A stretch of DNA of 57,517 nt, counting the filler, from Dugesia japonica (taxonomy: Eukaryota), in the NCBI GenBank assembly GCA_001938525.1. It is 5 parts of 5 records of this genome, joined end to end, with 100 filler letters (N's around TTAATTAATTAA, not from the genome) between each part and the next. Parts side by side here need not be neighbours in the genome. Positions count along the whole stretch, not along the records: positions 10,519 to 21,100 come from MQRL01518678.1; 4 more parts are not named here. One strand, given 5' to 3'. The translations under genes were made by a program, and so were the position numbers. This document shows positions 1-56,210 of the stretch, piece after piece. The notes beneath the pieces were generated by a model that was not told the origin of the DNA, ran no database searches, and worked only from the letters and a program-made list of their open reading frames with translations. Position 1 is the first letter of the stretch. Every line of letters starts with the position of its first letter.

Positions 1-1365
1 TAAAAAGATCTTACAAATATTTCACAGGCGGTTTATATAAAACACTTAATTTTTTAATTTTTATTTCAGGACTTAATTGGATAATTTCACAATGAATCTC
101 TATTTGAAAACAAAATGTGTTCAATCATGACTACTTTATTGATTCCATATTCATGACTGCTTTGCTGTGTTTATTTTTTAATCGCTGTTTAATAACTATA
201 ATACTTTGTATTGCTCAAAGAAGCTAAACAAACAAATAATATTCCTTAAATCATTAATATAAATAATTTCTATTATTTTCCATGTAAACTTCATTGGAAT
301 TTTTGTTTGTCAATTTTGTAATTTTAAATAAAAATAACACGTTAAAGTAAACAATCTGTTAGGTTTTTAAAAATTATTTTAGATAAATCTCATTCATTAG
401 TAACAATTTTTAAATTGCATTTGAAACATTAGGATAATTAATTGATTTCAATAGAAACATGAAACAAAATTCTTCACGATTTATTATTTGAATTCCTGGC
501 ATCGTTTGTGGTATCTTTGGGTTTTAGTTCTTGTACTACTGACTTGTACCTCGGTGTGTTGCTTATAAAGGAAGTACTTTTCGTCGTCACTGTCCTTTCG
601 AACTTTATTTTAAAGGATGGTGGATTTACTACGTTAATAATGATAAAATTAATTGTAGCTTAATCTTAGAACATTTAGATTAACTAAAGGCGTTAGTATA
701 AATTCAATAAAAAGTTTATGGACGCCCATTGTAAAAGTAAACGGAGATACCAGTGGATAGAGTCAAATATTGTGAGGCTCTTGTTCTGGTCGTCAGTTAA
801 AATATGCCCAATATTCAAGCTGGTCTGGAGCCCTCTGCTTTACTTGTTTGGATACTTGATTGTATGGATTTTTTAATAGCGAATCTGTGCGGTTTCTCCA
901 GTCTCGTGACAAGAGTACCACACTCCTTCCATTTTATGATATTTAAAACAATAAAAAGAATTATTTACGAATATAAACAAAACATGAGAGCCGATTATTC
1001 AGTTTTATTACTATTTTCTCCATTCGATCTAAATCAAACACTTCTGTGAACAATGATAGCTTCGTTTTGTTTGGTTAATCGATTGTACTTGGATAANGAA
1101 AATATAAGAACAACGGTTTAGCCGGATTAATTCCTGCTTATGTCTTATAATTTTAAAAACGACTCATGGAATACTTGCTATGTGGATCTAAATATATTAC
1201 GCAGTTATTACTAAAGGATAACACTCTCCTGATTGGACGATAATTAAATACACGTGGCTTTGTTATATAGAAGCGAGAAAAATTTGAGTTACAATTAAAT
1301 CTAAATGAAGTAATAACCAAAATTTTATTTCAGTAATAAACGAGAAAAATTTGATCTCTATAATC

Positions 1366-1685
1366 CTTGTGTTGTCCAAACATTTTTTAGCTACGGCACA
1401 TTTGCCTGAATTAAAAATTTTCACGGCACACTAATTTTTTGCTTTAATTGCAATTTCTTATTGCACTTTTATTAAAGATTTAAATAAGAAATAAAAATTT
1501 AATTACTTAAAATAAATTTAGTATAAAAGTTAACATTTAGAAAATTTGAGTGAAAAAATTCATAAAAGATAGTTAATGAGATGTATGTGCATGATGGANC
1601 GAACAAATAAGTTACAATCGAGGTGTAACAGGGTATTTTTGACTTTATTTGAAAAATTTCGCGGCACACGGTTTGGACAACACTG
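1366..1685. mobile_element. hAT-type MITE (about 320 bp)
   Basis: TIRs C(TT)GTGTTGTCCAAAC / GTTTGGACAACACTG; perfect 8-bp TSD CTATAATC at 1358-1365 and 1686-1693; subterminal CGGCACA repeats. Confidence 0.85.
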
Positions 1686-2348
1686 CTATAATCTAAGTAA
1701 AAATAATTAATTACCATGCCAATTCTAATGATAAACGAGTAATCCAAAATAATAATAGACGGAAGAAAGGTATAACCCATATCGAATAATTCAAATTTAA
1801 TCCTTGTTATTGAAAAGGAGGACTCTTTTAAATGAGTTCATCAATTCTACTACAGACCGTTGCGAATGACTTATTTATTAATCATTAGATTTAATATAAA
1901 ACTTAATTTAACAATAACAACAGCGTTGTTATGAGGATATTTAATATCGATTTATTATTTATTGACTTTGGTAGCAGGTGCAAAATTGATTCATGTTCTG
2001 ACTAGCAAATTAATTCATAGCTGAGTTCATTGAATTCTTATATTTTAAAGTGAAAATTTAGATATAAATTTTGATAAAAAATTTAGTAATCCTTATCTTA
2101 ACAATTTGAGTGGAACTAATTTTTTTGGAAGCCATCTTACTGAGTCCCTTATTTTGTAATAATGTAGTCACCTATGTTAGAGTTAAGCATAAAATATATA
2201 TTCTAAATACAAAATGACACTGTAACACACACACACATATATATATATATATAGCTTTTGATGAATCAGTTATGCAATAATCTCTGAGCACTAAAATCAT
2301 ACACACATTCAAACAGTCAATCACGCATTCACCTATTATCACATACAT

Positions 2349-3774
2349 GATACACTGACATTTCACATAAAGAATTTTCACATAAAAACTTTATACAAAA
2401 AATTTTTACAGAAAAATTTCACAAAAAGAATTTTCACATAAAAACTTATAATAATAAATTAGATCAAATGCATAAAAGAATAGAAGAACAAATCAGGCAT
2501 TATTAAGAATAAAAAAAATCAAATTATTATATGAGATAATAACATCAGCATGGTTAATGCTTAATTCGATCAAATAGGTTAAAGATTTATTAAATAAATA
2601 CCAGATAATATAATTACAAAATATACAAGTTAATTATTTAAACTTAAATGAAATAATTTACAGTATATCTTGATGAAAAATTGCATTAGCAAGTTAGTCA
2701 ATATTCCAATTTTATCTATTAAAATTAGTAGTTGTTTTAATTGAAACAGATTTGGCGCTAAATTTATAATTTATATGAAACCAAAATTATTTATATAAAC
2801 TTTATTTTTAGAGATTTTAAATGTTTACAGTTACAAAGACAACTAAGAATAACTTAATGCTTACAGATGTTGAGTTGGAATATTACTTAAACTCTAAAAC
2901 GTCAACTAGAATGTACTGGGTTTGCACGAAATTTGAAATATATAATAGTAGGCTAACAACGAATTTGGTTTCTGGCAGCGATTATATCATTGTCAGAAAG
3001 GTGACACAAAGGATAAAGCCTTGGAAAATCCTACTGCCCAGCCTTCTAATACAAAAAGAGCTACGTTCTATAAACGATTTGGATGTTTTGGCCGGTATAG
3101 CAGGGGAAAAAATCAATGCTTAAGACATTTAATAGGATACAGAATTTTTTAAGACTAATTATTCCTAATACTAGTTCATGTTGTATAATAAACTCGCCAT
3201 ATAATACTACATATAGTGGTACACCATTTCTTAGATATGATTCTGGAGTTGAAGATATTCAAAGTTTGATATTTATTCTGATGAAGGGCTTAAATATATC
3301 AGTAGAAGTACTTATTTATATACTGATGGTACATTTAATACAGTTCCAAGTATTTTTTCTATTTATATACAATACACGGAGGGCAGAGCTTTCCTTTTAT
3401 TTATGTTCTGTTTCTTCGTAAATCGAACCAATTATATAAAATAATTTATCAGCATATCATTAGGGCTGCACTTAGCAATCGGTTAATTTTTAATCCAGAA
3501 ACTATTATGACGGACTTTGAAATTGAACCCATAAGCGCAATATCAGAAGTTATTCTAAATCGTCGAGTTAAAGGATGTTTGTTTCATTTTAATCAATCTA
3601 TATGGAGAAAAGTACAAGAAAAAGGTCTTTCTCGGCTATATATAGGTATAGAAAGCATAGAGATAAAAGATTCCTTGTTAAATATCATAACAATATTATA
3701 ATATGTTTTTATGTCAAAAATATTTATGTGAAGAGTTTTTATGTAAAAATTTTTATGTGAAATGTCTGGGTGCC
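2349..3774 (+). mobile_element. Mutator-like (MULE) DNA transposon, internally deleted and decayed
   Basis: TIRs built from GACATTTCACATAAA / TTCACATAAAAA subrepeats at both ends; 8-9 bp TSD (C)ACATACAT at 2340/1-2348 and 3774/5-3782. Confidence 0.85.
2821..3701 (+). pseudogene. MULE transposase pseudogene (FLYWCH-like N-terminus plus MULE DDE domain)
   Basis: Motifs YWVC, YTDGTFNTVP, IMTDFE and GCLFHFNQSIWRKVQ spread over frameshifted fragments. Confidence 0.85.
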
Positions 3775-3844
3775 ACATACATATGTCGATTTACTTATAT
3801 AATGGTCAATATGAAATATTATAATATTAGTCATATCTCACATT

Positions 3845-4510
3845 CCCCCTTTTTAAAGTGTTTTGACCATTCAATATTTCTTATTATTTTTTTACCATTA
3901 GTAAGTTCTTATTTTAAACTCCTATCATGTATTTTCTATATAATTATTGCTGGTCCTTCATATCTGTTTTCATTTTTATGTGAACTTTCTCTTTTTATTA
4001 AAACTGCGTCACAATATTAAATTTTTTAACTGAATAATTCTTCTTTGAATTTGTAGAATTTGCATAGTTGTTTAAATTGTTCATTATTCTTTTACGCTTT
4101 AGATTTATTTCATTTACATTGTTTTTATCATTTCTAACAATCCATTCTTTGTGTAAATTTTTCTCAAAAACTATTTCAGCTGGAGCTACATTCTTCGTTC
4201 TCTGAAGTGTGATGTTCAACATAAATTCTATTTCTGGTATAATTTCAGCCCAGTCCTGTTTTTTCTTATCCTGTAAACTAATTTTAATTGTATCTCTTAA
4301 AATTCGAAATTGTATTGCAATTATTACATTACTTCTATGGTGATATGGACTAGAGTATTGGATTTCGCAATTAAATTCATTAGCTTATTGTTGGAATAGA
4401 TTTGTTTCAAATGATTTTCTACGATCTGTATGTATTTTTCTCGTTGCAACATATTTCAAAATCCATTTATTTTTTAATATTCTAACAGTGATATTTTCAT
4501 TTTTATAGAT
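3845..4510 (-). pseudogene. Ty3/Gypsy integrase core and C-terminus remnant
   Basis: IHTDRRKSFE, YSSPYHH, DWAEIIPEIEFMLN, APAEIVF, YEGPA (GPY/F-like); ends at a PPT. Confidence 0.8.
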
Positions 4511-4511
4511 G

Positions 4512-6043
4512 TGTTGGGGTTTTACTCAAGGTGGGTTTATTTCTTATATGATTAAATCTAGGGGGGTCGAACTTTATATAAAATTACGTCTAGAGTAATT
4601 GACCTGGTAAAACCCCGCAATGAATTTGAATCTGGTGTCCCCAAAAAAATCCAGATCTTCGGAACGGAGCCGTTAACTCGAAATCCGAGTACAGGCTCGC
4701 ATTTCTTTGGTTCGGGTTCGTTTTACATATTACTCGCTTAATTTACTAATCACAATTGTGGGGTGTTCCTTTATTCGGTCACTCTATATTTGATTATAAT
4801 CATAATAGCTATATTATCAATTCGGAAAAACAAAAGAATTTATAAGTGAAAAATATATTATATGATTTAAATTTCACTTTGGGTACAATAACCTAATAAT
4901 TAACATAATTAACAAAACTAATGTGACCTGGGTCCCGATCTTGAGCAAGCACAAGAGCATAACATTCATCCCATTCGTATCCAATAGTTACTCCAGAGGT
5001 CCTCCATAATAATAAGTTGTAGCAATCTAGTCGGAAATCGTTGCATCATCAATCAAATCGCATAAATAATCACCTTTTGTGTTAATTTCGTTTTAATTTC
5101 TGTATTTCCTTGATAAAAAGTGTATATTTATGTGAAAATCATACCGGTTAAAAAAATACCGGTTTCTCTTCACACCCCCATTTATTTTATTGGTGGATAT
5201 AAATTCTTGGCGCTTTTATTGGCTAGATAGTCACATGCGTTCTTTTCATTGCTTGATATTTTTAGATTTCGAATCTATTGGTCCCCCTTCAAACCCTTGT
5301 TTCTTTTTTCTGAGACTCATAACGATTTTTTAACTTAAAATCTCAAGATCTCTGATTTTTTCTTGACCAGAATGTTTTTAATTACTAATTTTTCCACCAT
5401 GGGAAGTCGTTGTTTTTGACATTTTTCACGAAATAATTATTTTTCTTTTTAAAAATACTTTATTTTAAATTGTTCGATTTATTTTATTTAAATAAATAAA
5501 TTATTTATTTTATTTTCTTCCAAAATATTAATTCGATGTTCCTTTCTTTGTTTTGTCTGATATAATTTTAATTTAATTTCATTATTTTCTTTTATTAATT
5601 AATTCATTTAATTAATTTTTCTTTCTTCCAGTATAGTTCAATGTGATTTTCTTGATTTTGTTTAATGAAATAATGGTTATTCATTATTTTTTCTTGTCCT
5701 GCTACAGCTTATATTACTTCTTTTTTTCTTTAGTTTACTTATTTCTGCGTTGTTTCGTGCTGTAATGTTGGTTATTTCGTTGGTTTTAATTACCAATTTT
5801 TTGGGTTTTCCTTTTCAGTATCTCTTCCTTTCACTGAATTATGTTCTTCTTAGGTCTGAGGGCTTTAATTTCTTTTCTGACGACCATGTTTTGAATTTCG
5901 AGTATAATTATCGCCATTTGTATTTTCGGTACCAAGTGTAAGAAAAGAAGTTTCAAAGATTTACTAATAGTGGGTCAGGAAATAGAGTTAAAAGAGAGTA
6001 TAAAAATTAGGTGGTTATATAAAATAACCACCAATGAATAACA
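4512..6043. repeat. Non-coding, LTR-like repeat (boundaries uncertain); shares a diverged segment with 7896-8125
   Basis: Starts TGTT exactly where the integrase remnant stops; homologous blocks recur at about 7900-8125; the right end (AACA at 6043) is a guess with no TSD. Confidence 0.35.
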
Positions 6044-10418: not shown

Positions 10419-10518
10419 NNNNNNNNNNNNNNNNNNNNNNNNNNNNNNNNNNNNNNNNNNNNTTAATTAATTAANNNNNNNNNNNNNNNNNNNNNNNNNN
10501 NNNNNNNNNNNNNNNNNN
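10419..10518. other. Artificial contig linker
   Basis: 44N + TTAATTAATTAA (stops in all six frames) + 44N. Confidence 0.97.
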
Positions 10519-11302
10519 TGTGTTCTAGCCCAACAAATTACTGGGGGCCCTCAAAAAATTCCGCCCCGGAATTTCTCTCAAAAATTCCTTTTAGTACCAT
10601 TTCCTCTGGAATCTAACAACGTTATTTATCATAGCTCGGCTTTTAATATGATGGAGGCTCTGTCAAATTTCAACAGGTCAAAAGCTCCCTGAAGCAAGAG
10701 TCTAATAGGTCATAAAATTAAGTAAAGTAAAGAAAACAAGATGCAGAAACAAAATACATTATTTCNNNNNNNNNNNNNNNNNNNNNNNNNNNNNNNNNNN
10801 NNNNNNNNNNNNNNNGCAAGAGTCTAATAGGTCATAAAATTAAGTAAAGTAAAGAAAACAAGATGCAGAAACAAAATACATTATTTCATTAGAATATCAA
10901 TACACATGCATAATTTACCATCATACTCATAATTACATAAACAAACCGTCTACCACATTATTGATCAAATACTAGCCACTCAACATTTTAAGTTCGCCGA
11001 TCACATTTATTGTCACCATAANATAGAATCACTATATAACTTTTTAGCTTACTTACTCTTTTGTCAACGGAACCGACTTTGAGATAACTTTAGCATTTGA
11101 GATGAATAGCCGAATTTGGAGACAACTTGGCAGTATAGAGCTGCACGACAAATGGAGATTACCAAATGGACAGTAGAGAACTGCCAGAGCACACTTGGAT
11201 AAATATAATTTGTTCAATTACACAATTATAGAGTTTTGTCACAGGAATCGTGATAGTATTTACATAGTCACTCGCAGCATAGAACTGCTCGAAACGAAAA
11301 TT

Positions 11303-12235
11303 CTATCGGCCCCAGAACAGATCCTCCTCGGACACTGAGAAAGGCCATTGAGATGATTGATCGGGATCGGGGAGAATAGTGGGAGATTGAGAATCGGTTT
11401 TTTGAGCTGCATACTGGTCGAGCAAGCTGATCCGCTGGGCGACTGATCGCCTATTTGTTTTATAGCTGTAGAATGTCTGTTCCACCTTAGTGAGATTTAT
11501 CTGTCGTGGTGGAATTACGACTCGGACTAGGGTTTCTTTGAGCGGGATATTCTCGTCATGTAACTGTTTTACGGTCTCCTCTAAATGTCGAATATTAAAC
11601 TCGCTCTCTTCTGTTTCGTTTTTCCAGCACTGACTTTCTTCGGTGAGGCTCGCAGTTTTAGTTTGAAGGTATTTAATAATATTTTCGAGGTTTTGAATAT
11701 CACTCTGATATTGTTCACGCTCTAATCTCATGGACTGGATTTCTCGCACTAATCTTTCATTATCTCTATGTAGATGATTCAACTTCTCTTGTTGATTCTG
11801 TTGATTGGACNNNNNNNNNNNNNNNNNNNNNNNAATTGTCTTTTCCAACATTTTAATTTTTTTGGCTTGCCACTTTACTTGAGTCTCTAACTCTTGAATT
11901 TGTTGCTGAGCTCTTTTCCAATTGTCTGCCAATTCTCGTTGTTGGCGTGAAATTATTTCATCTTTGCTCCCATCTGACCTTCTCCGATAATTTACTGGTT
12001 TAACGACATTCTCGTTGTACTCTCTCTGCTTCTGCTTCGGATTGTTGTCTTGCCTTGACTCGCACTCTTAGTCAACTGCTCGAGCTTGGGGTTAGAGTTT
12101 CTCTCGGATCTCACCCGATTTTGTTGATTAGTTGTTGTTCACTAACGACTCATTACAAGTTTGGTTATTATTTCGACAGTATCGTTTGATTGCTCCTCTC
12201 TGTCGAGCCATGCTGTTTGAACTTCGGGATGCCAT
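11303..12235 (-). pseudogene. Coiled-coil accessory ORF (track ORF 11303-11932; probable original ATG at 12235, disrupted)
   Basis: Long Q/E/K/L heptad-rich region; the open frame extends upstream of the track TTG start to about 12068; AAAATGG start context at 12235. Confidence 0.55.
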
Positions 12236-12734
12236 TTTCTTAATTGAAATACAGATAAACATGGTATTGAATATTTACACATTAAGACATCGGGAGTAAT
12301 GATGACAACAAATTTACTGGTTAATCAAATTTTAAATGAGATTGATATTTACAAATTGTTTTAATAGTGTTTCATTGGTTACTTCTACTGTACTGTATCC
12401 TGAATTTTTATGTTTATTTACAATTTACCAAGTATCACACTCACAGATACACTACATGCCACTCCTCATTGGGCCATTTACACACTAAATTTGACTTCTC
12501 CGTCAGTATCATCTCCACAACACAACTCCGCAATTTTCGAAAATACTCAGACACTGTATATACAAATTGGAATTATTCTGATTACGCACTTATTAAATAA
12601 CTATAATTTGTGAGTCTACTTATACGATACTTTTACTGTTTTTTATTTTTGGAATATAAGTTTTTTTTTACATAGTAATACAGTTACTATTTAATACATA
12701 TAATCTTCCGTAATCTACAACTCGGCATCCATCA

Positions 12735-13250
12735 TCATACATTACTCTCTTCTCCATACCACATCCTCTCACTAGTCTCGATAGTGTTCAGGATTGTGGA
12801 TACGCTCGGTATTCGGTTAATTTGGGATAAGATAAGCTCTGTATTATAAGTCTGTAACTCCTCTACTTGGTGTATCAGATCCTCTACGACTTCATTAGTT
12901 CCACTCAGGGTTTGCAGGTAAAAGTTCTGATTCTCGGTAATCTGTCGTCTCTGGTTCTCCACTAATTTATTCAAAAGGTGTATCTGCATCACATAAAAAT
13001 TTTGATTCTCCACAAGGGTTACGTTTAATTGTCGTGTCTGTTGTAACTGTTCGTTTAATGCATCAGAATTCCTCATTACACTCCGGCAGTGTTCGTCACA
13101 TAAATTCTCCATTGCAAAATACGGATTTAAAGGTTGATTAAGTAGTTGAGTATAAGTTTGCACCGGTTCCTCCATAATTGCTCTGTCGACATCGTCTAAA
13201 TCCACATTTACTGTTAACAGTCCATTCATTGTTATCTGTTTCTGTTCCAT
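12735..13250 (-). CDS. 171-aa Q/N/E-rich coiled-coil accessory protein, unknown function
   Basis: Intact ATG-to-stop ORF with AAAATGG context; internal repeat ENQNFY x2; heptad pattern. Confidence 0.65.
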   Translation of the reverse strand: MEQKQITMNGLLTVNVDLDDVDRAIMEEPVQTYTQLLNQPLNPYFAMENLCDEHCRSVMRNSDALNEQLQQTRQLNVTLVENQNFYVMQIHLLNKLVENQRRQITENQNFYLQTLSGTNEVVEDLIHQVEELQTYNTELILSQINRIPSVSTILNTIETSERMWYGEESNV

Positions 13251-13578
13251 TTTACTAAATAAATACTATGATAAAAATACTACAGTGATCCATTCTAAAT
13301 CAAGTTTACAAATTGCTCCATATTTTAATTTTAATTTATTCAGCTATGCTCTACTTTACATTTCGAGCTACTCAAAAAACTAAATTGTGTACCTTACTGT
13401 ACCTTACATTTCAGGTAATTTATTTACAACTTTGCTCTCACTATTCTCCTCAATAACTCCGTAACGACTCAGTTCCTCCCTCCGGAACTCCCAACCGCAC
13501 CAACTCTCTTGGTGGGTATAAATATTTCGCCGTCAACTCTCTTAACTCTGGTTCCAATCGCAGTCTCGGATACTGCCC

Positions 13579-15143
13579 TCATTTTGCTTTACAGATTAAT
13601 ATTGTTATAATCGTCATCATGATAATCGTACTGACGCCCGCTACTCCACCACTGAGTCTTGCTGACCAATTCCTTTCATTTTCCAGTTTGCTTTGCAACG
13701 TTGATGCCTCATGCCTCAACTTAGCTTTTACTGGAAATGTCCGTCGTGAACCAGTCCTTACCAACTCTTTCATTAATTTTTTAAAAAAATCCTCTTGCTG
13801 ATTATTTAAAATATTTGATGGCTGCCTCATAGATTTACTTTCAGTTGTCGTTTTCACATACCTCGTCATTGCATGGTTTCTCTTTTTGCTTCGTACACTG
13901 GTTTCTCTCGTGCTTATCTTCATGATAGTTGTTGTCGCCGTTGTGGTCGTTTTCGGATACACCATCGTCGTCAACTTCTCTGTTGTTACCCGGACCGTTG
14001 TCGTCCTCAAGTATGTTTTCGCTTTTGTTCTCTCTTTTGTCGTCGGTTTGACGGGTAGTGCCTTGTTGCCCTGGGGTGCCTCGTCTACTAATACATATTC
14101 TAATTCTAACCACTCCCCATTTTTCCGATTAAGTTTCATTATCATTTCGTGTTGATTACGCTTCCATCTATACTCTGGTAACACTCCGTCTTGCGCTCAA
14201 TATTTAAAGATTGATATTGCTTAATCCGAAACAACAATTTCTTTCTACGCGACACTTGAAACGTATTTTCTGCATCTTGGGGTGTCCTTTGATTCTCTTT
14301 ATCTACTATACTCATTTTCATATCGATCATAGGCCACTCTNNNNNNNNNNNNNNNNNNNNNNNNNNNNNNNNNNNNNNNNNNNNNNNNNNTCTTGGGGTG
14401 TCCTTTGATTCTCTTTATCTACTATACTCATTTTCATATCGATCATAGGCCACTCTCCTCTTCAAAAGGCAGAAGGCTGTCCGCTTACACCTGATGGAAA
14501 CTGGTTCCATTGAATACTTGTTACTGCGACTCGTTTCAACCCTTTCCTTGAGATTGTCTGCACTTGCGTTTTATAGTAAGTCATATAGATTCGATGCTCC
14601 GTATGAATATCCTCGTAATCATTACACTCTTCTCCACTTATCACTTTGAACACCATTAGCAGTAATACCGCATCCATCCACTTGTCCGATTGACTTGTTA
14701 ACGGACTCACATTCCTCGGAATCTCGGTGTCTGGCTGCACTTCACGCTGTAATTTCGCTTGATTATTCACGTTTATTACTAAGATTACGATTGTCACTGC
14801 AAATGCTAATGCNNNNNNNNNNNNNNNNNNNNNNNNNNNNNNNNNNNNNNNNNNNNNNNNNNCGATTATCGTTAGTCGTCTGGTTCACTACAATGGTTGG
14901 TCCTGCTGGCCAATCTCGTTCCATCCCTATCACTTCGTATGTGATCAACGCCATTAGCACATATATCCATTTATTCATTAGCTTGTTTTGTCTATTTGCT
15001 CCACTGGACGCCGTGGCCTACTCGTTGAAATCATACAATTTTGTCACTTGTACTGTTGTTGGCCATGCTACCGCTGTTAGCGTTACTAACCAAAAAATAA
15101 TTATTGATACGGGTATCAATGCTAAGCAAGTCCATATTGTCTT
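13579..15143 (-). pseudogene. Multi-hydrophobic, Thr-rich, C-terminally anchored membrane module (env-like), end of the giant frame
   Basis: Hydrophobic segments IWTCLALIPVSIIIFWLVTLTAVAW, WIYVLMALITYEVIG, ALAFAVTIVILVINV and WMDAVLLLMVFKVISG; Thr-rich stalk; terminal GVAGVSTIIMMTIITILIC. Confidence 0.6.
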
Positions 15144-17400
15144 TCAAAAATTTCTCAGAACAGATGGCTTTGTTTCCTCTCTTGGGTCTCCCAATTCTAT
15201 TTCATAAATATGATCTTGTGATTCTGATTTTGTCATTGCGTATACATAATTTCCTTCTGACGTGTTATTCCCATTCGTGGGTGGTTCTGGTAACGGAGCT
15301 TCTCGACTCGGTCCTTTAATCGTTGCAAGATCCATCATAAAGTTACTTTCTTGTTCTATTATTTGTTGATTTTTTCCAACCTTTCTTTCCTCTTGTTTTT
15401 CTTGAGTTGCTCTAATCTCCTTCATTACCTCAGGTGTGAACGGCATCTCAAACGGGACATTGCCCTTGAGGTCCATCATTCCAATTATTACTATCTCGTC
15501 CTCGACTTTGTCATTATCTTTTGTGTCGCCCTCCAGAGTCCCACAAAAGTTTAACATTTCCGCTTCCTTCAGCGTTTTAGTTTTCGTTTGTGGTTTCGGG
15601 GTTCCATGACATTTTTGCAATCGTTTGCCCCTTCTCCTTTACTCGAATCCTGTTCTCGTTTTTGTTTTGCTCTACGCTGCAGTGCTTGTAGGTGCAATTT
15701 TTGCATCGCTTTACTCTCTTCTACCAACAATGGATGTGGATAAACATAGGCTATTCTCTGGTACTCGATTACTATATCTTCACTCCATCTTAATCTCTCA
15801 TCACACTCTTGTTCGGCAAGTGATTTTCCTCCATTTTTAGATATTCCTCTATCTCTTTGTAGAGCGCACCATATTCTCTTTTATACTCTTGCTCATGATA
15901 CTTCTGAAGTTCTTGATCTGTCGGCCATTTCTCCATCCTATCCCCATCCTGTATCGTGGGGAATTTTTCTCCTGGACGTTCTGTACACCATTTGCGTTTT
16001 TCCCTTGATAATATGCTTGCATTTCTAACTTTTTCTCTTTAGGTATGTCCGTTCCACGACTCAATACTGTTTCTACGGTTAATAATATGGCAGTTTTTAT
16101 TTCCTCATTTTCTTCCTTTCTTTGTCGCTCCTCTTCTGACGTTGGCCGCTTTCCAGACCTCTTTTTATCGTTATACCCTGATACTTCAAGCTTTCCTTCC
16201 TCTTTATGTTTCTGGGCCCATTTTTCATAACATCTTTCACCGTACGCTTCAATCTTTTCTAGCGCGGCTCTTGGCACCTCCACCTTGTCTTTACAATACG
16301 CTCTCAGCATGGCTATCGTCTCGGCATTAAATATTTCATCTTCCTCAGCCCCGGCCCTCTGGCTATTTTCTGCTTAATACTGCTTTCTTTGTGTCAAAAA
16401 CTCCTGCCATACATCACCCTTTAGTTTTGTGATTTTTGGCGTATCGCTCTCGTCTGCTTGCGGTGGTCGTCCACTAAATTCACAATAGTCCATCATTCCT
16501 CTTTTTATTACTTCCTCTAGTGAATCGTAACCATTTTCACCGTTATCATTATCTGAATAAGAATCCATTATTTCCATAGTCGTACTTTGAACTTGCCGTC
16601 TTTTATTTTTATTCTTTCTGTTCCTCTTTCTCCGATTTCCAATTTTTTCCGATGTGCTAAGCAGAGTTTTCAGTTCGCTGTTGTTTTCCTGTTGTAATTT
16701 TAGTTTCTGAGACAGACATGAACGAGTTTCTATCATTTGGGCTTTCTTTTTCGTTAATTTCTCCATCGTTTTTTGTTGCCTCTCTGCTTTTTGTTGAATC
16801 TCTTGTTTATCTTTCTCTAATTTCACTACCACTTGTTCGAAAGCTTGTTCAGAGACCCTGAAGTGGAACAATTAAAAAACGCGGTACAGTGGGTACAAGC
16901 TTTCGAACAAGTGCTGGCCCGTCATTTTCTTTAATAAATTGTAGCATCTCGGTCATCCTATTGGCTTGTTCCGCTTTATATTCCGCATCATTTAGTTTTC
17001 CTTCATATTTTTCTTGACGCTTGCTGTGGGCTTCCTACATAGTTTTCAACTTTTGTTTATTCTCCTCGGAGATAGTTAATTGTGAGTTTTGTCTCTTTAA
17101 ATCGTAGTATGTACTGTTGCTCTCTCGCATCTCTTTCATTATTTGTTTTTTGTCAATTAATTCTTTGTGAATTCTCCGTATTCGCTCATTGAACAACAAC
17201 TCAGGCCAATCACTCCCCCTGTTTGAAAAATCGACGTCCTCGTCGATGCCCTGCATTTGACAATTAGTCTTACTCCACCTTTCCTTCGGTGTTATTGATG
17301 TCAACAATTCTCCTTTAACTGGTATGGCTTGGCCTAGCTTTAACCCTTTCCTGGCCTCGTGTAACACAATAATTGCCTCTTGCAATTGACCGCGCATATC
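15144..17400 (-). pseudogene. Coiled-coil / basic / acidic middle region of the giant frame
   Basis: Track ORFs 17035-17475, 16374-16871 and 15849-16310 join through single stops and a repairable micro-inversion; the link to 15144-15620 needs frameshifts; NLS-like RRKRNRKNKNKRR. Confidence 0.6.
16830..16913. repeat. 19-bp perfect inverted repeat flanking an inverted 46-bp coding segment
   Basis: CACTTGTTCGAAAGCTTGT (16830-16848) and its reverse complement (16895-16913). Confidence 0.9.
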
Positions 17401-19020
17401 GATTGCGCATTCCCAACACAATTCTTTGTATACCGTTTCTAGTACTGGCAACTCCACCTGGACTTTTACGTTCACACAACTGACACAACCTGCACTGTCT
17501 CAAACTCCTGTATCCAGTAACCATTGACCTCTGCGTTCGACTTGTAATAACGACCGTTTAATACTACGCTTCGTCCTTCGGTAACACTTTTTACATAACT
17601 TCATGATATCTACCGCAGTGATAGAGCATCGAGTAGGCTTCCATGCTCTACATTCATCGCACACTGTCGGTTCGATCTCATCATTTTCCTTTGATGTCGA
17701 CTGATCCTTGTAGATCCAATACTCCTCATTCTTTGTAGTAACTATCTAAACACCGGTCAGACATGGTTGGCATAACGGTGTCCATCCACTCTGGGGAATT
17801 AGTCCTTTCATGTTATATCGTCCGCATCTTGGATTGTCACATTTTCGATTCACTTTCTTCCAGTCGTCCGTCACTGAAGAATAATATTGATTAAGCATGT
17901 CTCGTCAATTTTCATAAATATTTGATTGGTCAGTTAATTTGAATTTTTGTAAGATTTCGTCATGAGTTAATTCTTTATCCCGTCTAATAGAATTGACTGC
18001 TGTTAAACCTCTCATATGTACATGTAAGCACTCCAGTTCATTGTCAATAATTCCTTTAGCCTTGCACAGGCAATTATTACACCATTGCTTATATAAATCC
18101 TCGTCTTATTTCAGTTTGAACGCTATTTCATTACATTGTTCACAGGTGGAACCATGGGATTCCTTTCTGTCTTCTCGTAATGATTCTCGTTGGACACTTT
18201 TCTCCATCAACATTAAGTTATCATAGATCGATTGTAAGCAGTGAAAACATGCTTGGCTCATAAGCACTTTATTCAATGGCACTTTATTCGAAGATCTCGT
18301 ACAGTGACATATTTTACATGGCAAGACTAGATTCTCCTGATTGCATATACTCGGATTGTTGTCTACCGCTTTAATAGTTTTCTCAGCTTTAATACTCCTG
18401 CTTAAGATTAACTGATCTTGCTTTTTGCTGGTAACTATTTGCATCACTAACAGACACGGCTCACATATCTGCTTTTCCAGATTACGCCTGCAACATCCTT
18501 GCTCGTTGGAATGCCCACATTGTGGATTATTACATTTTCGACTCCCTTGAGTCACTCCTTCCTTTATAAGCGAGTAATATTGTCTCAATATAACACCGTC
18601 ATTCTCACAGATATCTGAATTATTAACTACCTCATTTTGTTGTACAATCTCATTTGGCGCTGGTTCTATATTCCGTCGTACAGGATTTGCAGCTTTCAAC
18701 CATTTTAAGTGTTTATGTATACACCTAATCTCTGTTGTAGCAATTCTTTGTGCGAAGCTCAAACAACTTCGGCACCACTGTTGGTATTCACTTGTTACAC
18801 TTGGTAATTTAATCGATGTCCGACCACATAATTCGCATGATAATTTGTTCATAATAAACTTCCCTCTCCCCTGCTGGGTAGATTCCCGAATCAAATTCTC
18901 CACTAACTCTGCTACATCATCACACATAACCCGCAAACAATGATAACATGATTTTCCCATTAGTTCTTTGCTTAATGGCACCGAATCCGGTTTTGTTGCC
19001 TCACAGAATATACACCACTT
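17400..19020 (-). pseudogene. Tandemly repeated Cys-rich (CxxC...CxxC) region fused after the integrase
   Basis: Two about 232-aa units plus a partial third, read in frame through stops at about 18106, 17905, 17746 and 17500. Confidence 0.75.
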
Positions 19021-19279
19021 TTCTTGTTTAACACTTTTATTTTCTTGAACTTCACCCTTAGTACTTTTGGTTTTACTGGTCTTCGTATTCATCATCATTA
19101 TTTGTTGTCTGGATCTAATCAGGTATCGATCCTCTTCATCAATGAATCTAGTTTTGAAACTAACTCTTTTTGTCTTTTTAATTTTGTGTTTAACCTCCTC
19201 GTCTTTGTCCTCCATTTTTTGCTTAACTGAGACTCGTCTCACTCTTTCCACAGTCTCCTCATCGCTTTCTTTATCATTG

Positions 19280-21100
19280 TCGTCTTCGGTTGCTGCTAGT
19301 TTACATCTTGATACGTGAACGATACTTGGCGTTTTAAGTGGTTTTCCCACTTCCTTTACTTTTAGATTCGTTGCAGTTGTCTCTAACACTAAATATGGTA
19401 CTTTGTTTGGTCGTTTTAATTTATCCGTGGTTCCAATTTCGATTGTTGGTGTATTAATTAATATCATGTCACTCTTTTTAAACGAATGGGGCTTTGTATC
19501 TCGATCATATAATTCCTTGTAACTCTCCTGGTTAAACTTCGCATTTAACGCTGCCAATCTCCATATTTCTTGCATTCTCTCTTTCATGCCGGTAACGTAA
19601 TCATCCTCGTCCATATATTGCGATATTGGCCACTGATGCTCTAAATCTATTGGCATATTACATTCTCGACCGTACATTAGTTTAAAAGGTGAAGCTTTGG
19701 TCGCGGGATGTTCTTCCATCTGATAGGCAAATAAACATAAATTCAAATGTTTGTCCCAATCTCTCTGCAATTTCGTTGCATAACTCGATAACATTCTAGT
19801 CAATGTCTGATTGAATCGCTCTGTCATTCCATCCGTTTGTGGATGATACTCTGATGTCCGTACTTTATGAATATTAAAATAACTAGTCACTTCTTTCATT
19901 AATTCACTCATGAAATTATTTCCTTGATCTGTCAATATTTTTTCGCTGGGCCGTATCGACTGAATAATTTATCTACTAATACTCGTGCGATTGTCGACGC
20001 TTTTTGATCCTTTATTGCAAATGCCTCGGGAAACTTTGATAAATGGTCCACTACTGTCAAGATATACGCTTTTCCACTGTCCGTTGGTGGGAATGGTCCC
20101 ATGATGTCCATTGCAATTATATCCATTGGTGCCGCTGGCACGGGTATTGATTGTAACGGCACTTTGAATTTCTTTCCCGTTCCTTTTCTTGCCGCACAAA
20201 TCTCGCATTTACTAATCCATTCATTTACACAAGTTGTAATATGAGGCCAGTAATATTTTGCTCGTAATTTTGATTCGGTTTTCTTTGCTGACATATGACC
20301 TCCTAGAATTCCATTATGATACTGCTCCAGTATTTTCGCTCGTCTACATTTTGGTATTACTAATAACCGTTGATCACCTTCCATCATCATTAACCATTCG
20401 TTCACCACAGTCTATCTACCACCTTGTTTCTTTAAATGTGCCTTCATCGCTTTGTTACACTCCACTTTGCTCAAATCAAAGTGAAATATGTACTCTAGAA
20501 TTAATCTTACTTCCTCGTCTTCGTCTTGATCCCTTTTCAATCCGGTAAAATCTTTATTCTCCGCCAATATCATACATAAGGATCGTATGTCTTGATTCAT
20601 CAATTGCTGTAAGTCTATCCATTCGCTTCTGGTTGCTTTATTTTCTACCACCTCCTCCGGTTCGTCTGTAAATTTTGCTCTTGACATATAATCTGCATTT
20701 GAATTTGCTTTTCCTCTTTTGTATTTGACCAGCGGTGCATATTCTTGTAGCTTCATCGCCCATCTGGCTATTCTATTTGCTTGTAAAGGTTTTTGTCCGA
20801 TCATTGTTATTGGCTGATGATCGGTGTAAATTACTTAAGTATGTCCAAATATTAACTGATTAAAATGTTTTACAGCCTTTACTATTGCCAGGATTTCTCG
20901 TTCAGTGGTGCTATAATTCTTTTCAGATCTTTGAAATGTTTTACTAAAATATCCGATCACCCTTTCTCGTCCTTCTTCGTCTAATTGACTCAATACGGCA
21001 CTCATTGCATAACCCCTTGCATTCGTTGCGAGTATAAATGGTTTCCTAAAATCTGGTTGTACCAGTATCGGTGCCGTCATTAACTTTTCTCGAATTGTTT
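19280..21100 (-). pseudogene. pol: Ty3/Gypsy pol: RNase H plus integrase (two in-frame stops, one frameshift in an A-run at about 19940)
   Basis: PDFRKPFILAT, NYSTTEREILAIV, YTDHQP, NADYMSR; YHNG..GGH...CEIC (HHCC); IAMDIMGP / TDQG / DGMTERFNQTL (DDE); KLKRPNKVPY and VHVSRCK. Confidence 0.95.
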
Positions 21101-21200
21101 NNNNNNNNNNNNNNNNNNNNNNNNNNNNNNNNNNNNNNNNNNNNTTAATTAATTAANNNNNNNNNNNNNNNNNNNNNNNNNNNNNNNNNNNNNNNNNNNN
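21101..21200. other. Artificial contig linker
   Basis: 44N + TTAATTAATTAA + 44N. Confidence 0.97.
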
Positions 21201-21539: not shown

Positions 21540-22250
21540 TCTGATTTAAAAAAATTTGAATGACCTAATGATTTCCGNNNNNNNNNNNNNNNNNNNNNNN
21601 NNAATTAGGAAGGAGTCGGATGGAGCAATATCAGACAAATATTGAAGTGGAAAAAAAATTTCGCAATTCCAGTTTTTTGTGTCTTCTGCTGGGTTTTGAT
21701 TGTAAACTGACATTGTTATGGTTCAGAAGAACATCCTTTTTGTTGCCATAAATCGGATAGTTATTACGTAGTTTGACTGTTATACGAGTCAATTAATCAC
21801 AGAACATAATTAGCTGTAATTGTTTTGCCAGATTGCAACAATTCAACACCTATGACTTCATTTTGATTCCACCAAATAAAAAGAATAGGATTTTGTTGAT
21901 GGATATTCGTTTTTTATGTAGCAAGTACTGGTTATTCTGGTAAAACTTTTACGTATTAAAGTTTTGTATTGAATCTAGTTTTCATCTTCAGTTATCACTA
22001 ATTAAAGTTAGTTCGTATTCATTTCGTAAAAGTANNNNNNNNNTTACAAAAATTCGAGTTAAATTGTTTTTTATGTCAGTTTATGAGATACGAATTTAGA
22101 TCATTTACGAATAAATCCAATTTGATGAATTTATTCTGTAATGTTTGTTTTTGTGAAAGCTGAAGTCACTTTGCGTTTTTCATGATAGTTAAAAATTGAT
22201 TTGCAATCAATTCAGACTTCAACATCAGAAAGCATACCTGAAAACAAAGC
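21540..22250 (-). pseudogene. Decayed mariner transposase
   Basis: ILFIWWNQNEVIGVELLQSGKTITANY and YLSDIAPSDSFL (YSPDLAPSDY-like) fragments. Confidence 0.7.
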
Positions 22251-22349
22251 ATGACGTCTTAGATAAAAGGCTTATTTTAGAATTTTTTTAGCCAAAGTCT
22301 AACTGTTCTTTCTTTAATGTTGTTAGAACTATCTTGTGTATTTGACTCT

Positions 22350-45150: not shown

Positions 45151-45819
45151 TCAGATAAACTGATAATCATCAATCGTACTTTGTTCATTCCTTATGGTGT
45201 TAAAAAAATCTAACCATTGTAAATCAAATTGGGATTTACTCCACGATAAAAATTGGTCCAAAGAATTTAAACGCTGCTCAACAGTGTCTGTTTGTACAAT
45301 ATCACAAGCTGTTACAAAAACACTTTTTAAATCATAAATCAATTTCGAAAGGGTTCCACTCGAAATATTTGGTGACGAATCTCGTCTTAATAATGAATTA
45401 TTCCAATTAAGATCACAATATTCTTCTTTTGTTCGTGTAATGATAATTTTTAATAAAGCATATAAACCATAAAATACAGGAGTTGGACTGAGAAAATTTG
45501 ATAATCCCGAACAGTATTTATCTAAATATTGTAAAGACGAATATCTGATGTTATCTAATTCAAAAAACCGAGTTGATAATAAAGTCAAGTTAACATGAGC
45601 GTTAACTAAATTGATAGTATGATCGATTGGATCACGATTACTGACTGAAAAATAAACTGTTGGATTATCCAATGAGTCCAAATGATTAAGATTTGAATTG
45701 TGTTCTGAAAAAGGAAAATTATGTGCTTCCTTATCGGATTGAAATCTGTCATTTTCTAGTTTAGGAAATCTTGTTATCAAATTGGAAAATATTATTGGAA
45801 TAATAAGCAACAAAAGAGT
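45151..45819 (-). CDS. Probable terminal exon of an unknown host gene (about 222 aa, N-terminal hydrophobic stretch)
   Basis: Stop-free 669 nt in very AT-rich DNA; preceded by a TTTTTTTCTAG acceptor; starts TLLLLIIPIIFS; no recognisable domain. Confidence 0.6.
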   Translation of the reverse strand, partial: TLLLLIIPIIFSNLITRFPKLENDRFQSDKEAHNFPFSEHNSNLNHLDSLDNPTVYFSVSNRDPIDHTINLVNAHVNLTLLSTRFFELDNIRYSSLQYLDKYCSGLSNFLSPTPVFYGLYALLKIIITRTKEEYCDLNWNNSLLRRDSSPNISSGTLSKLIYDLKSVFVTACDIVQTDTVEQRLNSLDQFLSWSKSQFDLQWLDFFNTIRNEQSTIDDYQFI

Positions 45820-49028: not shown

Positions 49029-49128
49029 NNNNNNNNNNNNNNNNNNNNNNNNNNNNNNNNNNNNNNNNNNNNTTAATTAATTAANNNNNNNNNNNNNNNN
49101 NNNNNNNNNNNNNNNNNNNNNNNNNNNN
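49029..49128. other. Artificial contig linker
   Basis: 44N + TTAATTAATTAA + 44N. Confidence 0.97.
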
Positions 49129-52139: not shown

Positions 52140-53530
52140 ATAGTAATGATGAAGAACGTTTGAAACCAATTGCAATCTCGTCAAGGAAATTAAATACTGC
52201 GGAAGAAAATATTCAACGTTTGATGGTGAATTATCATCAATTTTTCACAATTTCAAGAACTTTGAACATCACTTAAAAGGATTTCATTTCAAAATTAGAA
52301 CGGATCATAAAGAACCATAAAATTTCAATGGCGATGGATTCGGTATTTATCTCAATTTGATATGTAGATTCATATATTAAAGGACCTTGTAACATATTAG
52401 CTAATCTTTTTTCTTTCTAAAAAGAATAGGAATTTATATATATAATACAACCTATTTACTGAATTCAATGCTACAGAAATCAGGAATTCACAACATTTCG
52501 GTATCAGACTTACTAACAGCTCAACAAGATAATATGTTTCTGAAAGAAATCAAAAAATTATCATTGATTTCTCATCACACCAAAGAAGGTATCGTGGTTG
52601 ACAAATAAAAAGTAAAGTAAAAAATTATCTTACCTTTACAAATGAGGTTTACAGAGTTTGAGAAACTTTTATGCTTCAGTAATCAAGGATCAAACGCAAC
52701 TATCGAGATATATCTCGCCTAAAATGAAGACCGAAATTCGAAAAATGTGTAAACACTGTCAGAATTTCCAAACGAGTAAAATACAACAACATACAAAAAC
52801 ACCACAAGAATCTCTATCATACAGAAGAAATTTCAAAGTGGTTCATATAAATATTGTTGGACCACTTTCAATAAATAAAAGTAAAAAAATTATTTTCACG
52901 ATTGTAGACCAAGTCATATCTTAAATTTAAACCTTGCCACTTTAGGAAATAAATGCAGAATCAATTTTTTCGGAATTTTGATGAGATTGAATACGGAGAT
53001 TCGGTGCTCCTGAGATTAGCAACAATGTGGGCAATGTATTTTAAACCTTCTGAAAAAAATTATGGAACTGAACATCACAATAAAACTCATTATTACCCCA
53101 AATGTAATGGAAAATAGAACCTTTTAGCTGAACACTAAAAATGCATAGAAAACATGGTTAGAAGATATAACAGAGGTGCTTGTAAGAACACACTATACAG
53201 TTAACACAAAAACACAACTATCTCTATCACAGTCTTAGTCGCAACTATTAAACTTCCAAGAGATATTATTATTCAATTCATACCTCATAATATAAGAAAC
53301 AGTAGCTTACTGACTACATGGATTTCAATAGTCATTCTTACCTAAAGACTTACAAAGCTGCAAGCAAGTATTAGTCAAAACTGAAAAAAGACGATCTATT
53401 CAACCAATTTACGAATGTCCATTCACAGTTATTAGTAGACGCTGCGACATGAAAACAATAACAGTTTAAAAACGAGAACATCAGCAGAATATAGCAGTTG
53501 ATAAAGCTAAACTAAAATATGTTAAAAATG
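52140..53530 (+). pseudogene. Ty3/Gypsy RNase H plus integrase remnant
   Basis: LKPIAISSRKLNTAEE, FKIRTDHK, CKHCQ, VHINIVGPL, RFGAP, IQPIYECPF. Confidence 0.85.
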
Positions 53531-53719
53531 TATCATTCTGCAAATTAAATTACATATTTAAATATGGTATTTAAATAAAGGAAACTTTGTTTAAATACTT
53601 TATTTTAATGAAATAAACACTTCTCAAAATTTTTCATTCATTTTTAATTTTGTATGTCCAGATGCCGATATCATCAAACATATTCTTTTTGGTCTGTCTG
53701 TTTCAGCTCCTGGTATTAA

Positions 53720-56210
53720 CAATATCACTTAAATTCCTATCTAGCGGGATTACCCCTGATAGATGGCGGATATTTTCGACTCTTATGATACCCAAGCTGG
53801 GTGAAGCTGGATCATATCACTTTGTCTCGTCTTGGAGACCGATTGCGTTGCTTGATTGCTTTTATAAGCTTTCTATGGCCTGGTTAGCTTCACAACTGTC
53901 TGATTGGGTTCAAAAATTGAAACTCTTACACAATCTACAGATGAGTATTGGAGAATAAGAGAAGTGCTCTGAACAAATTTTTTTGCTTTGCCATCTCCTT
54001 GAAAAACAGAGCCAAAATTAAATGCTTAATCGTCATATTGGCTTCTCGAATATTTCTGATGCTTTTGATAGCATCTCTATTGATCACATTCTTGCTCTTT
54101 CTTCCCGAATAAAGATTTCAAATGTAGCTACTAAGTTGATTAGGAGTCTTTACTAAGATTGATCCAGCTACTATATTTGCAATGGGGTTTACACTAGTCA
54201 CAAAACGAATCATAGTTGGGTACGTCAGAGTTGCTTCTTATCAATGTTATTGTTCAACATAGGTAATGATCCGTTTATTAACAAATTATCTCGGCTCAAA
54301 GGTATGGAGATAAAATGAGCAGGTCACTAAGTTTTTGTGCTAGGCTATGCTGATGACCTTACTCTTGTAGCGTCATCTAAGGCTGCTCTTCAAGACATGG
54401 TTAATGTCGCAGTCAGATTGGCTGACTGATCTTCTATGGAGTTCCGTCCTGATAAATGTGCTTACCTCTCATGCCTTGAAAATCATCCTCTAATTCAATT
54501 CATTATCAAGTGTCAAGCAATTCCTATAATTGTTGATAAAAATTNNNNNNNNNNNNNNNNNNNNNNNNNNNNNNNNNNNNNNNNNNNNNNNNNNNNNNNN
54601 NNNNNNNNNNNNNNNNNNNNNNNNNNNNNNNNNNNNNNNNNNNNNNNNNNNNNNNNNNNNNNNNNNNNNNNNNNNNNNNNNNNNNNNNNNNNNNNNNNNN
54701 NNNNNNNNNNCTTTCAGGAATTTTAACATACCCGTTGGTAAATTTTGGTTGAGTAGGTTTTCCTAAAATTGGGCTGTTTTTTGACCTAAAGAGACTGACA
54801 AATGCATTAGAGATAATATTAAGAGCTGCTCCGTCTGATTATGGTGGGGTAGGTCTTACATCAGCTCGGGATGAGTATTCAATTCAGTCGATTGTGCAAG
54901 GCTTTAAAATACTCATCTACTAGCCATCATTGTTAGAGATTTGGCAAGCAATGCCCTTATTCACGCTGCCACTAAATATGTCAAACAAGCTAAAATCTGC
55001 TCCATTATTGAGGCACTTGATTAATTTCACACTAGAATCACTCAATCTTATTACCAGTGTTGGTGGTCAAGGTTCAAACGGAGATTGAGTACCTCATGAA
55101 TAACCTTGATATTGAGATTAGATTCCAACGCACTAGGCTTGGAGTCTGTCTCTAAATTGTTGATAGATTGTCTGCAGGAAGCCATCTTATTTCATTTAAA
55201 GAGAAGCGGTATGTGACTAACTGTTAGATGAGTTTGGAGTACTTATTGGATCATCAATATCATAACTCAATTCCATAGGAAAATTTATTCAAAAACAAAA
55301 CTATAACCAACATTATTTGTTTATTCAAACAAATTAAAATCTCATGTTTTAATTGGTGACCATTTTTCAAATTATTTAAAAATTTTACTGTACTATTCAA
55401 TCGTCATTTTAAAATTTCAAACCAAATTTTCGTTATTTAAAATTATCCTCTATAATTTAAATTTTTTTTTAAATAAAAGATTTTTAAAAAATATGATCAA
55501 CAATAACACAAAGGTTTCAACTCGCTTTTCAAAACACACTAACATTAACTTTCTTCATTTTCTTGTAAGCTTGTCACACACTAGGAAATGAAACTCTCTC
55601 AATAAATCAGGTCCTCTTTCTAAAGCGATTGGCACTTCATCCATCTCCAATAGACCTCTCTATAATTGATCCATTTCGATGGGTAATTGGAGATTTATTC
55701 ATAGAGCGCGCACTTAAATACTTCCAGTAGGGTGTAGCAAATTCATTGATTACAGAGAGTGTGCTTTTCATCACGAGACTCAATCGCATGTTTTTTACAT
55801 TGTTGTCCAACCTCAGCCTTCCACACTGGGTGACACAGTGATCTGCTTGAGTATCTTGCTAGTTTTATCAAAACCAACACTAGTTTCAAGGGCATTGTCG
55901 ATCAGACATGTGAAATTGTGAACAGGACTGATCGCGTTGATCTTCAATAAATTGCCAAAACTAGAAGAAGAATTATTTCGCTTGATTTAAAGACACGATA
56001 TGACTCTCAAGTCAACATCAATGTTGTCAGGGACAGAAATATTGCCAAATACACACCACTTCCGGGTGATATTAAACGGAANTTACTGAATTGGTTCGTT
56101 TTCCTTGAACCGATCTCAGTTGGTTGCCTGGGATCGTAGTAGGTAGAAAATGAGCAAGTGCTCAAATATGCGGGTCTAAAAGCTAACACTATCAAGAAGT
56201 TTGCTATTGA
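53720..56210 (+). mobile_element. Decayed RLE-type non-LTR retrotransposon (R2/NeSL/Utopia group): RT, zinc knuckle and restriction-like endonuclease; interrupted at about 55250-55560
   Basis: WRPIALLDCFYKL, DAFDSI, GVRQSCFLSMLLFN, GYADDLTL, FRPDKCA, WRFIHRAR, DRVDL, LDLKTRYD, IAKY, VGCLGS. Confidence 0.85.

Follow-up and report, generated by a model that had tools for sequence, protein, structure and literature searches.

A decayed copy of a many-copy Ty3/Gypsy (Metaviridae) element in the planarian Dugesia japonica (GenBank assembly GCA_001938525.1) carries eight C4 modules on the minus strand (19014-17407), in frame with the integrase and 92 charged residues behind it. The element occupies almost the whole of one scaffold (MQRL01518678.1, positions 10519-21100) of the 57,517-nucleotide stretch of DNA analysed, referred to here as the window. 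The array is internal and duplicated within pol; its modules are predicted zinc fingers, and we tentatively read it as an adaptor that would bind host proteins at several sites after release from the polyprotein, a reading to which we assign a probability of about 0.42. Accessory domains in giant Gypsy polyproteins are already known; an eight-module array of this kind is not named in the literature found. Fixed extra domains are uncommon in long terminal repeat (LTR) elements, and those described (chromodomain, MBD, AlkB) have revealed site choice or host resistance. The array provides a defined, selected and repeated domain with one naturally stop-free unit, which is expressible as it stands. 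The finding rests on one decayed copy. The literature searched contained no account of an array like this one, though the figures and supplements of the original description of the planarian element Burro, or a repeat library such as Repbase, may already include it without a name.

The C4 module array, its element and its copies

A preliminary description of this DNA had proposed about eight C4 modules in tandem units of 232 amino acids fused to the integrase. All of the cysteine motifs and spacers quoted in it are present, in a single minus-strand frame, which is that of the integrase. The pattern C-x2-4-C-x15-22-C-x2-C is matched eight times, starting at 19014, 18837, 18534, 18318, 18144, 17841, 17661 and 17487, whereas 2000 shuffles of the same 544 residues gave a mean of 0.34 matches and a maximum of five. 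Neighboring modules are 31-76 residues apart, and a profile built from all eight found no ninth in the six frames of the window. Self-comparison bears out the 232-residue period for the first two units: unit 1 scored 372 against the rest of the array (shuffle mean 40, maximum 67; 1000 shuffles), and 232 codons separate the first module of unit 1 from that of unit 2, the corresponding distance between units 2 and 3 being 219. Units 1 and 2 are identical at 77 of 220 aligned residues (35%) and, in line with the cysteine conservation expected from the preliminary description, share 14 of 18 cysteines, including all 12 ligand positions. The diverged partial third unit does contain two modules (A′ and B′), but its similarity to the others is weak, with an alignment score of 55 that was equalled by four of 1000 shuffles.

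The order of the modules was examined by comparing all 28 pairs while the cysteines were fixed in place and the other residues shuffled 1000 times. Pairs 1-4, 2-5 and 3-6 were far above chance (0/1000 each), module 8 resembled module 5 (2/1000), and module 7 was marginally like module 1 (85/1000); there was no clear likeness among the three module types, the lowest cross-type value being 26/1000. This pattern gives the order A-B-C, A-B-C, A′-B′. Type B in units 1 and 2 is followed by C-x-H-x-H, and type C has a first gap of four residues. Unit 1 carries a net charge of +6 and unit 2 one of 0. Of the single modules, numbers 2 and 7 are basic, at +6 and +9 respectively, and three of the eight are net acidic.

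The frame is stop-free from the second half of the integrase core through unit 1 and module 4, and this copy has stops within the array at 18108, 17907, 17748 and 17502. Between 19900 and 16900 the array frame has five stops per 1000 codons, compared with 12-23 per 200 codons in the other two minus-strand frames. Identity between units 1 and 2 is 54%, 62% and 43% at the first, second and third codon positions, respectively, and 10 of 21 fourfold sites are equal. Second positions are the best conserved and third positions the least, which is the mark of selection on the protein since the duplication.

The window consists of short AT-rich scaffolds joined by 100-base linkers of N, each with a central stop word, at 10419-10518, 21101-21200, 34157-34256 and 49029-49128. 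Its GC content per 2 kb is 0.17-0.40 and about 0.25 through most of the window; that of the element is near 0.38. The pol order is that of Ty3/Gypsy elements, with RNase H followed by integrase (H2C2 domain, then core). The scaffold end at 21100 cuts RNase H, so that reverse transcriptase (RT), protease, gag and the 5′ LTR fall outside the window. The features of the element, in the direction of reading, are as follows:

20739-21098 (minus strand): RNase H of the Ty3/Gypsy pol (PF17917, E 7e-36)
20184-20357 (minus): integrase H2C2 zinc domain (PF17921, E 4e-18)
19645-20132 (minus): integrase catalytic core, with a frameshift near 19935-19968 (PF00665, E 6e-7 for the first half)
19300-19476 (minus): SH3-like integrase C-terminal domain, likely (PF18697, E 0.15 only)
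19021-19296 (minus): charged linker of 92 residues, with 24 K/R and 21 D/E
18328-19023 (minus): unit 1, stop-free; modules A 19014-18937, B 18837-18763 and C 18534-18454
17671-18327 (minus): unit 2, three stops in this copy; modules A 18318-18238, B 18144-18070 and C 17841-17761
17344-17670 (minus): unit 3, diverged and partial, one stop; modules A′ 17661-17584 and B′ 17487-17407
17038-17343 (minus): array frame continuing past unit 3, then a stop at 17035-17037
14871-16871 (minus): further charged coding segments, the frame changing between them, without a Pfam match; hydrophobic peak from 15125
13450-14809 (minus): membrane-protein-like region by sequence and hydropathy, broken by N gaps
11303-13265 (minus): two more open frames, 13265-12735 and 12067-11303, the latter coiled-coil-like

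The second half of the integrase core matched foamy-virus and Ty3 integrases (E 3e-7 and 4e-7). By eye, a degenerate stretch that may be the GPY/F motif can be made out in the likely SH3-like end, where the PF18697 match is weak. The last two open frames, in which GC is 0.37-0.40, probably belong to the same element. Counted from RNase H onward there is approximately 9.8 kb of coding-like DNA, the upstream part lying outside the window and continuity being broken in this copy. At 10694-10887 and 14275-14456, identical repeats of 72 and 66 bases lie on both sides of 50-N gaps; these are assembly overlaps, not biological repeats.

The array is not the end of the coding region, which refines the preliminary description. 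Its frame stays open as far as 17038, after which open stretches that switch frame continue to about 13450, so that coding frames extend approximately 3.5 kb beyond the array into the membrane-protein-like region. The latter (15130-13450, minus strand) contains several signal-like hydrophobic segments, a stretch rich in Thr and, at its close, another hydrophobic segment, with hydropathy peaks beginning at 15125 and at 13647. No family was found for it; judged from these sequence features it is possibly a surface glycoprotein of the element.

Other copies were sought in genomic contigs from four public DNA-type runs (three studies, two species labels; 848 to 5499 contigs aligned per run). All 30 bins between 16900 and 20500 were covered in each of the four runs. 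The element thus belongs to a large repeat family, contig depth being no measure of copy number. Among the 40 of 396 differences listed, nearly all of the depth differs from this copy at the array stops 17907 and 17748 and at the stop behind the array at 17036; the stops at 18108 and 17502 fall outside those 40. The differing depth indicates that this copy is decayed and that the family likely reads through the array. None of the 23 near-fixed differences listed within the array falls on the 32 module cysteines, a weak result as 1.4 would be expected. Mean contig depth was 2.5 to 4.5 times lower on unit 1 than on unit 2 in all four runs, and one contig of run X3, with 23 letters on its short side, joins 18384 to 19091 with a net loss of 702 bases, in frame, by which unit 1 is stripped of its modules A, B and C. 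Unit number may therefore vary among copies; the reduced depth could equally follow from unit 1 being more diverged, so this is a hint only.

Transcription was examined in four RNA runs of the same species label (10.5-13.6 million reads each, 6-25% of a run), in which 4, 95, 5 and 7 reads matched the element. The 95 reads of run X16 are mostly less than 95% alike and lie on pol and the downstream region, none being on the array. Their differences fall on third codon positions in 27 of the 40 listed (of 96), and likewise in five of eight and five of six of those listed within 14871-16871. These reads thus show weak transcription of a related subfamily, in which the downstream frames were under selection. 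At 17208-17247, 15750-15799 and 15187-15275, diverged RNA reads match over a short stretch but not in the sequence to either side, which suggests conserved motifs common to the related subfamily. Loss of SMEDWI-2 raises planarian Gypsy and Burro elements, according to the available part of PMC8532177, and by analogy silence of the element in normal tissue may fit that effect.

These data bear on the explanation that the array is a piece of a host or viral gene, captured and carried without use to the element. The near absence of reads on the array in the four RNA runs is in its favor, as is the lower depth on unit 1, which suggests that many copies lack this unit or have diverged there. The array has nevertheless been under selection as protein, in frame with pol, ever since its duplication, whose age is reflected in an identity of 35%, and the protein searches found no donor; we regard this explanation as very improbable.

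Predicted fold and searches for homologues

The preliminary description recognized no named family, and none emerged here, Pfam giving no match for the array or for the downstream stretches. Within the part of the element in the window there was likewise no Pfam match to chromodomain, PHD, BIR, ankyrin, MATH or BCL2 domains. Searches for array homologues returned none among 608 candidates from a word-indexed search of longer proteins and none among 974 proteins of near length aligned to the three units. The only phmmer match in 1.84 billion representatives, an unnamed tandem-repeat protein, was rejected as it shares a short C-x-H-x-H stretch only and has no C4 modules. The ESM Atlas gave nothing above 0.80 for the array and nothing for the membrane region; a Stc1 entry at 0.78 is at noise level. 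No viral contig and none of 43 metagenome-contig stretches matched the array, both libraries being poor in animal repeat DNA, so that these blanks do not show absence. When the module profile was run against 58 integrase loci from metagenome contigs there was no match (best E 0.28). Two of the 32 loci with at least 1500 bases downstream had one match to the C4 pattern, neither in the integrase frame.

AlphaFold2 on a single sequence of 310 residues returned a predicted local distance difference test (pLDDT) value of 33. A model of module 1 built from an alignment of six modules reached 80.5, with a helix at residues 29-48 that starts at the second CxxC. Profile comparison matched the second finger of PINCH1 LIM5 (E 1.5e-4, or 0.003 when the profile included all eight modules) and, at E 0.5, the ClpX zinc domain. 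In a treble clef, a knuckle, loop, hairpin and helix follow one another, with two ligands each from the knuckle and the helix start, as given in the available part of PMC4999995. The corresponding pattern of knuckle and helix-start ligands is present in all eight modules, helix placement being taken from the model of module 1, and on that model they are predicted to be small zinc-held knuckle-and-helix fingers. The treble-clef likeness claimed in the preliminary description has the ligand pattern and the weak LIM and ClpX matches on its side, but fold searches brought up no notable zinc finger. Like treble clefs (second LIM finger, ClpX, GATA), the modules have two cysteine pairs 17-22 residues apart, the second of which opens a helix; the array differs in having no family-level match, no hairpin in the model, and modules that lie 31-76 residues apart.

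Individual zinc-finger families were considered and rejected. A LIM domain is composed of two fingers directly in tandem, with set spacing and a His ligand; the modules are too far apart, only the second finger matches, and there is no Pfam LIM match. A PHD finger has interleaved C4HC3 ligands within about 50 residues, a spacing that does not fit, and again Pfam gave no match. A GATA finger has a conserved finger sequence and a basic tail; there was no Pfam or PDB match, and the array is of mixed charge. The C-x2-C-x17-20-C-x2-C spacing with a following helix is that of GATA-like fingers, and this general resemblance, together with the basic modules 2 and 7, would suit modules that bind DNA or RNA directly in genome packaging, in holding the LTR ends, or in promoter regulation. 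Since three modules are net acidic, the units are near neutral, and no GATA or other DNA-binding family scored, such binding is improbable.

The long helix that the model places after the second CxxC, the faint ClpX match and the membrane region downstream are what might be expected if the array had a structural or dimerizing role, either in the particle or in an accessory complex at a membrane, comparable to the ClpX and ZAD zinc domains, which dimerize through their helices. Both matches are, however, at chance level (ZAD at rank 50, Z 2.5), and the presence of three distinct module types suggests several different partners; we consider such a role decidedly improbable.

Related elements and the proposed role of the array

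Scanning metagenome contigs with the integrase of the element yielded the 58 loci mentioned above. One of these, L001, was the best for RNase H (141 bits, the next 114) and for both halves of the integrase, with 37-43% identity in pol. It has a single open reading frame of 2693 residues (L001:440-8521) that encodes, in order, gag, a fusion protein, protease, RT, RNase H, integrase, a signal peptide and a second membrane protein. The fusion protein is of the mononegavirus type (Monjiviricetes; PF24664, E 1e-88); the second membrane protein, in frame behind the integrase, is unclassified. As is proposed for the planarian element, the integrase of L001 continues in frame into a signal peptide and membrane protein, although the latter does not align with the membrane region of the element. 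The integrase end of the element aligns with those of L001, L007 and L008 up to residue 223. Trees were built from 23 of 55 matching loci for integrase (at least 150 residues) and 19 of 28 for RNase H (at least 110 residues). In seven loci (L002, L003, L004, L005, L009, L011 and L027) the integrase precedes RT and RNase H, a Gmr1-like order.

The envelope of L001, between gag and protease, is in the position of Burro env, which sits between gag and pol in the available portions of PMC6431247. The same portions list AIR1 knuckles, Smc, MATH, SUMO-like, BCL2, env, dUTPase, BIR and ankyrin domains for Burro, place several of the Burro1 accessory domains upstream of the protease, and state that about half of the polyprotein was unannotated at the time of that review. 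Burro/GYPSM1 resembles the element in its many copies and in copies decayed by stops and frameshifts, and probably also in its very long internal region and its polyprotein laden with accessory domains (PMC6431247, as available). Its internal region is up to 25 kb, with one polyprotein of approximately 4900-5100 residues. By contrast, those portions of the review name no C4 array behind its integrase, and the domains they name were not found in the part of the element within the window. On this comparison of sequence features the element is likely a Burro-like, possibly enveloped, planarian element, the kinship being a lead and not a result. Troyka was rejected as a relative: the available part of PMC12440569 gives it no envelope and no GPY/F, and flatworms are absent from its host table there.

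The element is not a chromovirus. No Chromo match occurs in its frame, while the same kind of scan gave PF00385 at E 5e-15 for L020; in the integrase tree the element falls in a 14-row set (100/98) that excludes the chromodomain-bearing L020, its end branch being long and its placing not firm. With chromoviruses, PHD-carrying retrotransposons and CopiaMBD it shares an extra in-frame domain next to the integrase, but those elements carry single recognizable chromatin readers, whereas here there is an internal array of eight modules without a known family. The preliminary description had set the array at the position of the chromodomain; it does lie in frame behind a Gypsy integrase, but it is internal and the coding frames run on into hydrophobic segments, which weakens the analogy and leaves room for an array that is possibly cut from a long polyprotein as a product of its own.

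A close rival to release, though doubtful in our estimation, is that mature integrase retains the array, which would then anchor the integration complex on chromatin or a chromatin protein. It is the first domain behind the integrase, in frame and after a flexible linker of 92 residues; chromodomains, PHD fingers and MBD next to integrases are targeting modules in the available parts of PMC6673714 and PMC9289625; and tandem copies would raise avidity. Tethering is less readily reconciled with an array that is internal, not terminal, that has no similarity to any chromatin-reader family and that, at about 560 residues, is far bigger than a chromodomain. According to the available part of PMC6673714, cleavage from the integrase would not exclude a targeting role, so release and tethering overlap.

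In the reading that we prefer, in which the array acts after release, each module is predicted to bind one zinc ion via its two cysteine pairs, and in type B the C-x-H-x-H may hold another metal ion. An intact family member would make one polyprotein running from pol through the array to the membrane region; such a polyprotein, as in L001, would have to be processed, and the protease of the element would cut the array out of it. The partners would be proteins, not nucleic acid, because the units are near neutral and the sole sequence lead is a LIM finger. The array would serve to oppose or redirect the controls of the host, such as silencing, ubiquitination and cell death, as with the accessory domains of Burro. 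Release is favored by the internal position, large size and near neutrality of the array, by the protein-binding finger lead, and by the concern of Burro domains with ubiquitination and apoptosis.

Several observations weigh against this proposal. Beyond 17038 the continuity of coding is broken in this copy by stops, frameshifts and N gaps, and RNA support for the array is next to none across the four runs. The module 1 model shows no β-hairpin and no strand, and its first 20 residues have pLDDT values of 68-69; Foldseek with this model found nothing in PDB and one entry in BFVD at E 9.6, and the best VIA-align result (Z 3.4) was to generic helices, the leading rows including no finger. As for the LIM match, it is weak and may rest on cysteine spacing. 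L001 lacks C4 modules and has only about 65 residues between integrase and signal peptide, and the trees leave the element in an open fork with L001, L007, L008 and the elements in which integrase precedes RT. Module 7, at +9, is basic, as are nucleic-acid binders, and the BIR, ankyrin, MATH and BCL2 domains of Burro were not found in the part of the element in the window.

A broader formulation holds that the array is a zinc repeat of three fingers, so far undescribed and present in differing copy number among family members, that belongs to a giant enveloped Gypsy lineage and either reads chromatin for the integrase or disables host silencing; taken as a whole this is unlikely. If true, retroelements would have an accessory domain of a new class, one that arose or was captured in a single animal lineage, and there would be a means of approaching the question of how these elements reached many copies despite strong control by PIWI-interacting RNA (piRNA) in the host.

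Other elements in the window

A second Gypsy element, ordinary and more decayed, is found at 21600-25500 (minus strand) with gag knuckles, protease, RT (PF00078) and RNase H; it is on the next scaffold and not contiguous with the element that carries the array. Fragments at 3339-3701 (plus), 3998-4384 (minus), 35404-35676 (minus), 52646-52924 (plus) and 53617-54726 (plus) comprise a Mutator-like element (MULE) transposase (PF10551), integrases, a Tc1/mariner-like transposase and a likely non-LTR reverse transcriptase. The window also contains AAT repeats, and at 45151-45819 (minus) there is an open frame of 222 codons without a Pfam family, possibly a host exon.

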